From the sequence record MT611523.1: a DNA stretch of 64,000 nucleotides; one strand, written 5' to 3'. Shown here piece after piece: positions 55,048-55,503 of this stretch (position 1 is its first letter; the number at the start of each line of letters is the position of its first letter). The notes beneath the pieces were generated by a model that did no database searches, was not told the origin of the DNA, and saw only the letters and a list, made by a program, of their open reading frames with translations. The translations under genes and the position numbers were made by a program. This DNA is from Escherichia phage DK-13.

Positions 55048-55503
55048 CTACTTTAAATCCGCCGACCAATTTAATTTTAGCGGTTCTTTATATTCACGGT
55101 CTAAAACAACCGGAATCTGAACTTCTCCTTTATACGTCAAAGGACCAACATTATAGGATAATGTTATGTGAGGAGTATAGTCCGGGAAATCATGTGTTGC
55201 GCCAATGGCTCGTGCATACATATGTCTGCAACTAAGATAATCTGAATTCAGTACAAGAACCAGGGTACTACCATCATCGGTTTTCCATACTTCCAGGTGT
55301 CCAGAGTTGGCTACTTCGAAACTACCAGAGGCAACAACATATGGAATATTTACTCTGGAATAACAAATAGTGGAATGGAATTTTTCGCGAGGAACGGGGT
55401 TAGGTACCTTAAGAGAGCGCTGGAGATTTTCCAGCGCATCAAGAGTTAATTCTGAAAATTTGGCTGCAACATAAAGTCCTTCAGAGACTTCATTTAATGT
55501 CAT
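55048..55503 (-). CDS. acb1: Acb1-like 2H phosphoesterase (anti-CBASS cyclic-oligonucleotide nuclease; T4 gene 57B homologue)
   Basis: 151 aa; two H-x-T/S-x motifs (FHSTICYS and PHITLSYN) typical of the 2H phosphoesterase fold; located directly upstream of 57A as T4 57B. Confidence 0.7.

Follow-up and report, generated by a model that had tools for sequence, protein, structure and literature searches.

The closest described counterparts of the locus considered here are found in phage T4 and Erwinia phage FBB1, whose Acb1 proteins have been demonstrated to cleave cyclic oligonucleotides; during T4 infection, Acb1 relieves restriction by CBASS, an antiphage signalling system based on cyclic oligonucleotides (Hobbs et al. 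2022), and T4 gene 57B, its gene, is conditionally required on a CBASS-expressing host (bioRxiv 10.1101/2025.11.20.689424). Immune evasion genes cluster in anti-defence islands, and T4 Acb1 is encoded beside ipI, an inhibitor of GmrS/GmrD (Hobbs et al. 2022). The T-even internal proteins are highly diverse defence proteins with only a capsid-targeting sequence in common (Rao and Black 2010): each of Ip1, Ip2 and Ip3 blocks a GmrSD type IV restriction enzyme of its own, without cross-protection (PMC12373910; PMC9391042), and McrBC, also of type IV, is inhibited by Bas37_0260, which is encoded at the ipI locus in a relative of T4 and has only the leader in common with Ip1-3 (bioRxiv 10.1101/2025.11.20.689424). 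We examined the corresponding region in a stretch of 64,000 nucleotides of Escherichia phage DK-13 (MT611523.1; the whole stretch is referred to below as the window), which belongs to a T4-like E. coli phage of the genus Gaprivervirus (Straboviridae, Tevenvirinae). Here a gene in the 57B position, acb1, is followed by five small open reading frames (ORFs), array genes A to E, with leaders of the internal-protein type (Table 1).

Analysis of the sequence indicates that acb1 is an ortholog of the T4 gene and not merely 'Acb1-like'. The ORF is uninterrupted and occupies exactly 55048-55503 on the minus strand (ATG 55503-55501, TAG 55050-55048); its product, of 151 amino acids (aa) compared with 152, is 82.8% identical to T4 gp57B (NP_049750.1) over the whole length and 67% identical to FBB1 Acb1, whose entries in the Protein Data Bank (PDB 7T26/7T27) it matches over residues 9-147 (phmmer E=3.7e-62). 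With Pfam PF23474 'Anti-CBASS protein Acb1', whose gathering score is set at 27, it reaches 200.3 bits, covering profile positions 1-143 of 144, and it matches PHROG 755 with E=6.5e-65. An earlier note on this DNA had read an Acb1-like ORF in the T4 57B position with the two H-x-T/S-x motifs of a 2H phosphoesterase. Both motifs are readable in the DNA (H43/T45 and H112/T114), genes 57A, 1, 3 and 2 lie upstream in T4 order, and the alignment to T4 Acb1 that the note had proposed as a check finds the catalytic His pairs conserved and similarity extending far beyond the HxT motifs; its equation of T4 57B with the anti-CBASS protein Acb1 agrees with the literature (Hobbs et al. 2022). By themselves, a pair of HxT motifs might be a chance occurrence, but whole-protein matches of this kind could not. 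Two plus-strand ORFs beneath acb1 (64 and 50 aa) were treated as spurious, because the minus-strand gene accounts fully for the region.

The identity of the gene is already in the literature, and identical sequences have already been deposited and named. By tblastn, 1478 of the 50,697 phage records searched contain an Acb1 relative, which in 30 of these is at least 99% identical; the UniRef 90%-identity cluster containing the window protein already bears the name 'Anti-CBASS protein Acb1', and the ortholog in phage EAWsc9 is annotated likewise.

For the T4 and FBB1 enzymes a catalytic tetrad (H44, T46, H113, T115), four base-stacking residues (Y12, W74, F107, W147), an adenine-reading glutamate (E141) and a C-terminal lid have been described (Hobbs et al. 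2022). All nine of these residues are kept in the window protein at the position minus one (H43/T45/H112/T114, Y11, W73, F106, W146, E140), and the lid is present as residues 144-151. Among 55 aligned homologs, the most divergent of which share only 23% identity with the window protein, the invariant residues are G9, H43, T45, S49 and H112, and Y11, T114 and E140 are conserved in at least 90% of the sequences. An AlphaFold2 (AF2) model built on this alignment has a mean predicted local distance difference test score (pLDDT) of 90.6 and a predicted template modelling score (pTM) of 0.83; Foldseek superposes this predicted fold on 7T26 with a template modelling score (TM) of 0.96 (normalised by target) and a root-mean-square deviation of 0.9 Å over 136 columns, the next matches being a phage phosphodiesterase (9Q2G/9Q2Y) and then 2H enzymes of the LigT type. 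In contrast to T4 Acb1, the window protein is one residue shorter N-terminally, its first eight residues differ (MTLNEVSE versus MMEFKDFST), and there are about 26 further substitutions, none of them at a described catalytic or substrate-contacting residue. The ratio of nonsynonymous to synonymous substitution rates (dN/dS) relative to T4 is 0.07, and Acb1, at 83% identity, is better conserved than its essential neighbours gp2 (71%), gp57A (56%) and gp1 (53%); hence the gene is intact, and purifying selection on it is strong.

Other members of the family differ further. The phosphodiesterase of Burkholderia phage BCSR5 (9Q2G/9Q2Y, deposited as 'Anti-CBASS protein Acb1') is related to the window protein at E=0.003 in sequence and TM 0.6-0.7 in predicted structure, but is only about 18% identical and, at 165 aa, has a longer N-terminus. 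In Cronobacter phage JC03 (2468-3091 of the compared stretch) the Acb1 homolog is 207 aa long and continues at its C-terminus for about 55 residues past the usual lid (…HIEHRGDKWVVLNHDRTKELGEYDSKEAAEKRLRQIEYFKHNG).

On the strength of the 83% identity and the conserved site, we are highly confident that the ORF encodes a functional Acb1 enzyme. Such an enzyme would bind cyclic di- and trinucleotides made by CBASS cyclases that contain at least one adenosine, and also cyclic triadenylate (cA3). By the mechanism described by Hobbs et al. (2022), the U-shaped ligand pocket would be closed by the C-terminal lid; strain in the bound ligand would lead the 2'-OH to attack the adjacent phosphodiester, and the HxT/HxT tetrad would provide metal-independent acid-base catalysis, cutting the 3'-5' bond 3' of adenosine. 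The linear products would be unable to activate CBASS effectors, and the infected cell would not commit suicide.

Downstream of acb1, in the locus between 57B and trna.4 that ipI occupies in T4 and Bas37_0260 in its relative, the window has five tandem genes rather than one or two. Their products share with T4 Ip1/Ip2/Ip3 and Bas37_0260 the same capsid-targeting leader, of 10-13 residues (MKTYQEFI.E), and a small size (73-110 aa), with calculated isoelectric points of 6.3-9.5. Their scores on a leader matrix are 26-32, and no other peptide exceeds 12; homologs of array gene A start MKTYxEFLTES, and for four of the five the PHROG family matched carries the annotation 'internal head protein' or 'internal virion protein'. 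The product of array gene B is named 'Ip9' in phage RB32. Similarity among the five proteins and to T4 IPI, IPII and IPIII is confined to the first 11-13 residues or so, and the proposal that they are homologs of IPI, IPII or IPIII was rejected, since the likeness ends with the leader. The T4 prohead protease, gp21, acts at sites of the form L/I-x-E. A site of this type closes the leader in array genes A (LAE), C and D (ITE) and E (INE).

The composition of the array varies among phages whose identity over the matched region is 96-98%. Escherichia phage vB_EcoM_RZ (RZ), the best match to the window (97.7% identity over 93% of a 6.7-kb query), and P8 have the same series of 110, 90, 80, 84 and 73 aa; the 73-aa gene is missing from UPEC07 and also from EAWsc9, which has an extra 99-aa gene (MQTFHEFLVEN); and P479 has genes of 110, 90 and 99 aa together with a different one of 92 aa. 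T4 has ipI only. The array genes are each present in 55-496 phage records, versus 1478 for Acb1. Because the likeness is limited to the leader and the composition varies among near-identical phages, the term 'diversified internal-protein array' is accurate, and the description of the neighbours of acb1 in the earlier note, as diversified internal-protein genes, is borne out by five consecutive ORFs with MKTYQEF-type leaders whose set varies among relatives. Since each has the leader that takes T4 internal proteins into the prohead, the five proteins are most likely packaged, cut by the prohead protease and then injected along with the DNA; by analogy with T4 Ip1-3 and Bas37_0260, they probably inhibit modification-dependent (type IV) restriction enzymes as a first response.

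Array gene A has an internal repeat, VFFQIGNERFQTS / AYFKIGDEQFIMS, and its AF2 model (pLDDT 76.7) predicts two beta4-alpha units. The label 'profilin' that this gene carries in EAWsc9 is unsupported: no profilin or IPI* structure is among the 50 matches listed. At the ipI locus of the record T4_ev151 (5535-5768 of the compared stretch), a 77-aa protein (MKTYQEFIAEAADVKVEF...) is unlike T4 IPI and by eye resembles the product of array gene D; we suspect that the ipI locus of this T4-named strain is recombinant.

The earlier note had suggested that acb1 and the array together concentrate counter-defence functions. This reading is reasonable and fits the literature, in which the concept has already been published, with the role of the five array genes assigned by analogy. 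By orthology Acb1 would act against CBASS, and gp2, the DNA-end protector that according to the T4 annotation shields injected DNA ends from exonuclease V, is encoded within 2 kb of it, the array genes being candidates only; on that annotation, gp2 adds a third early-acting counter-defence function near acb1. Several observations weigh against the Acb1 and array assignments or against the hotspot reading. No NCBIfam model matches Acb1, the five array proteins or an endonuclease ORF located between genes 2 and 4, and it is for Acb1 that this absence counts; in GenBank records the ortholog of acb1 is often labelled 'RNA ligase' or 'hypothetical'. With the leaders removed, BLASTP of the array proteins against T4 IPI, IPII and IPIII returns nothing below E=0.04, and because this comparison shows no homology to a tested inhibitor beyond the leader, an anti-defence role of the five genes is proposed by analogy only. 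In array gene B the leader is followed directly by FNE, with F in place of L/I, and LNE occurs four residues later. The fold matches of array gene A, to nucleic-acid-binding folds of the PUR-alpha/MRP-like kind, are weak (E about 4e-3, TM 0.44-0.52) and uninformative. Finally, because acb1 is tied to the 3-1-57A block in genomes that have no array, its adjacency to the array may partly mark the boundary between a module and a plastic region, and not selected clustering. On that alternative, adjacency is a by-product of genome architecture, a conserved 3-1-57A-57B block ending where a hyperplastic region with internal-protein genes starts. Four phages retain the block order: PM2 of Proteus, MD-2021a of Acinetobacter, phiAS5 of Aeromonas and JC03 of Cronobacter. 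Downstream of 57B, PM2 has one leader-bearing ORF, and unrelated ORFs or tRNAs, none leader-bearing, lie there in the remaining three; in two metagenomic T4-like contigs acb1 follows ribonucleotide reductase genes, and in the one such contig that was read it has no leader-bearing neighbours. On these observations, acb1 behaves like the final gene in a conserved module, and the array like the first occupant of the plastic region beyond it; the strong conservation of Acb1 (dN/dS as above), unlike that of the array, also fits. Clustering of counter-defence genes is nevertheless documented, the discoverers of Acb1 read the acb1-ipI adjacency in that way, and gp2, Acb1 and the array would all act at or just after DNA entry. 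We consider a purely architectural origin quite possible, if somewhat short of probable, and the hotspot and module-boundary views are compatible.

Two further alternatives concern the Acb1 protein itself. It might be a LigT-like RNA 2',3'-cyclic phosphodiesterase or 2'-5' RNA ligase that acts in RNA repair and degrades no immune signal: PHROG 755 carries the label 'RNA ligase', there is a weak match to Pfam 2_5_RNA_ligase2 (E=0.24), and LigT structures, which share the 2H fold and paired HxT motifs, are among the distant fold matches at TM of about 0.5. However, the label is older than the discovery of Acb1 in 2022; the LigT matches are 11-15% identical, compared with 66-68% for the Acb1 structures; and the window protein, some 20-30 residues shorter than LigT, has a nucleobase cage and a lid, with the Acb1-specific base-stacking residues, the equivalent of E141 and the lid tryptophan all conserved. 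Since its 83%-identical T4 ortholog has demonstrated Acb1 activity and a phenotype, a role confined to RNA repair seems scarcely credible. The other alternative is that Acb1 is itself packaged in the head by an N-terminal leader and injected with the DNA in this phage. Residues 1-8 (55480-55503, MTLNEVSE) precede the catalytic core and are disordered, at least over residues 1-5, in the AF2 model, and the crystal construct of FBB1 Acb1 left out residues 1-7 (Hobbs et al. 2022), both of which would suit such a leader. A profile search of the Acb1 family yielded 4946 representatives, and the leader was analysed in the best 146. In 116 of them, 6-30 residues precede the core as a leader, and 83 of these 116 fit the pattern M-[KR]-[L/F]-x-[E/D]-[L/I/F] (consensus MKLxE[L/I]xE), as do 6.8% of control peptides. 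Near-canonical capsid-targeting leaders with an L/I-x-E site occur in a few T4-like Acb1 lineages (MIRSFSEFITEA in phiAS5, MKSFKEFIME and MMNFKDFITEE), and these outscore nearly all non-internal-protein peptides on the leader matrix. The window leader was read as fitting the general pattern of the family, but as a T4 capsid-targeting sequence it was rejected, its score of -3.6 on the matrix derived from true internal proteins placing it only in the top 15% or so of controls; a strict T4-type leader occurs in only 5 of the 146 representatives. The general leader, moreover, is found throughout a family of nearly 5000 representatives that includes prophage sequences (Hobbs et al. 2022) and one match in a 51-kb Pseudomonas phage genome, and this broad occurrence favours a function belonging to the enzyme itself. 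The literature searched contains no paper that connects Acb1 with virions, which also counts against packaging, and we judge it very unlikely. Were Acb1 packaged, everything from 57B through the last array gene would form a single cassette of counter-defence proteins made in advance and injected, and the destruction of CBASS signals would begin in the first second of infection and not only once early genes are expressed. We retain the reading of acb1 as an Acb1 gene followed by a separate array of candidate injected inhibitors.

Table 1. Positions in the window of acb1, its catalytic motifs, the internal-protein array and bordering features
Feature	Position	Strand	Remarks
acb1, ortholog of T4 gene 57B; predicted 2H phosphoesterase cleaving cyclic oligonucleotides	55048..55503	-	151 aa
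First catalytic motif, H43-S44-T45-I46	55366..55377	-	CAT TCC ACT ATT, read from DNA
Second catalytic motif, H112-I113-T114-L115	55159..55170	-	CAC ATA ACA TTA, read from DNA
Perfect 12-bp hairpin	55008..55037		in 60-nt spacer between acb1 and first array gene; RNA fold -21.5 kcal/mol, z=-5.2
Array gene A	54655..54987	-	110 aa; leader MNIKTYNEFLAES; phrog_3966 (unannotated family); in 55 phage records
Array gene B	54374..54646	-	90 aa; leader MKTFNEFFNES; phrog_7673 internal head protein, E=2.5e-56; in 172 phage records
Array gene C	54123..54365	-	80 aa; leader MKTYQTFITES; phrog_3499 internal head protein; in 496 phage records
Array gene D	53812..54066	-	84 aa from the MKTYQEFITES start; phrog_8111 internal virion protein; in 245 phage records, mostly <60% identity
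Array gene E	53533..53754	-	73 aa; leader MKTYQEFINEA; phrog_8765 internal virion protein; in 107 phage records
T4 trna.4 ortholog, small membrane protein	53289..53474	-	67% identical to T4 trna.4; phrog_1692
Gene 57A, tail-fibre assembly chaperone	55503..55739	-	Pfam PF17594 GP57, 87.6 bits; phrog_1002
Gene 2, DNA-end protector, virion protein injected with DNA	57098..57922	-	71% identical to T4 gp2; about 1.6 kb upstream of acb1

The gene order of the region is that of T4 overall: on the minus strand, gene 4, the endonuclease ORF, gene 2, gene 3, gene 1 (the deoxynucleoside monophosphate kinase gene), 57A, acb1 and the five small ORFs are followed by the trna.4-like gene, a trna.3-like ORF, two ORFs, tRNA-Met and tRNA-Arg. 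As in T4 and FBB1, acb1 occupies the slot after 57A, and the trna.4 ortholog forms the conserved far border of the variable array. The TAA stop of 57A overlaps the ATG of acb1 by one base (TAATG), which suggests that the two are co-translated; they are probably co-transcribed as well. The hairpin in the spacer between acb1 and the array overlaps a sequence resembling a T4 early promoter on the minus strand (GTATACA-17 nt-TATTAT), and T4 also has a hairpin at the corresponding position between acb1 and ipI, of different sequence. It was not called an intrinsic terminator of acb1, because there is no U-run on the coding strand. Across the whole window Rfam identifies two tRNAs only, and nothing in the spacer. 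Between 51.8 and 58.7 kb there is no clear excess of promoter-like sites (30, versus 23.5 ± 4.9 in shuffled sequence) or of terminator-like sites (7, versus 4.5 ± 2.0), and the late promoter TATAAATA has 5 matches in 64 kb versus 5.2 expected. One late-promoter match, at 54656-54663 in the last codons of array gene A, was not taken as a promoter because it is too close to the next ATG.

Leader-bearing ORFs also occur outside the array. Two, at 41290-40982 when read on the minus strand (40982-41290; MKTYQEFITEAK, 102 aa, phrog_2667) and at 41811-42080 on the same strand (MKTYQEFLAESV, 89 aa, phrog_8765), make up another locus, some 12-14 kb away from acb1 and close to the position of the annotated internal head protein of RZ beside denV and lysozyme. 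Another lies beyond the tRNAs at 51000-51383 on the minus strand (MLTYAEFLNRNTITE, 127 aa) and has no family match. None of the three has any likeness to T4 IPI, IPII or IPIII beyond the leader. The N-terminus of gp2 (57895-57922) loosely resembles a capsid-targeting leader, with a matrix score of 5.7 that is among the highest of the non-internal-protein peptides. The endonuclease ORF (57919-58647, minus strand, 242 aa) belongs to phrog_681, overlaps the beginning of gene 2 and has a weak match to a treble-clef zinc finger; of the close relatives that the search returned, only vB_EcoM_RZ and fPSFA match it, and UPEC07 and P479 have homing endonuclease genes between genes 3 and 2 instead. This looks like turnover of mobile endonucleases around gene 2.

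At present the significance of these assignments is confined to annotation. The ortholog labelled 'RNA ligase' or 'hypothetical' in many deposited genomes of this phage group should read Acb1. An intact acb1 predicts that the phage would resist CBASS and other immunity based on cA3 or cyclic GMP-AMP (cGAMP). Carrying Acb1 exposes phages to recognition by Panoptes guard systems, in response to which acb1 has been inactivated in some phages (PMC13577387); an intact gene would also predict sensitivity to guards of the Panoptes type, which are triggered by depletion of such signals. These predictions are of use when host range is to be forecast and when therapeutic phages are selected. The array, for its part, offers a compact list of five candidate inhibitors of type IV restriction that varies between near-identical phages and is directly screenable.

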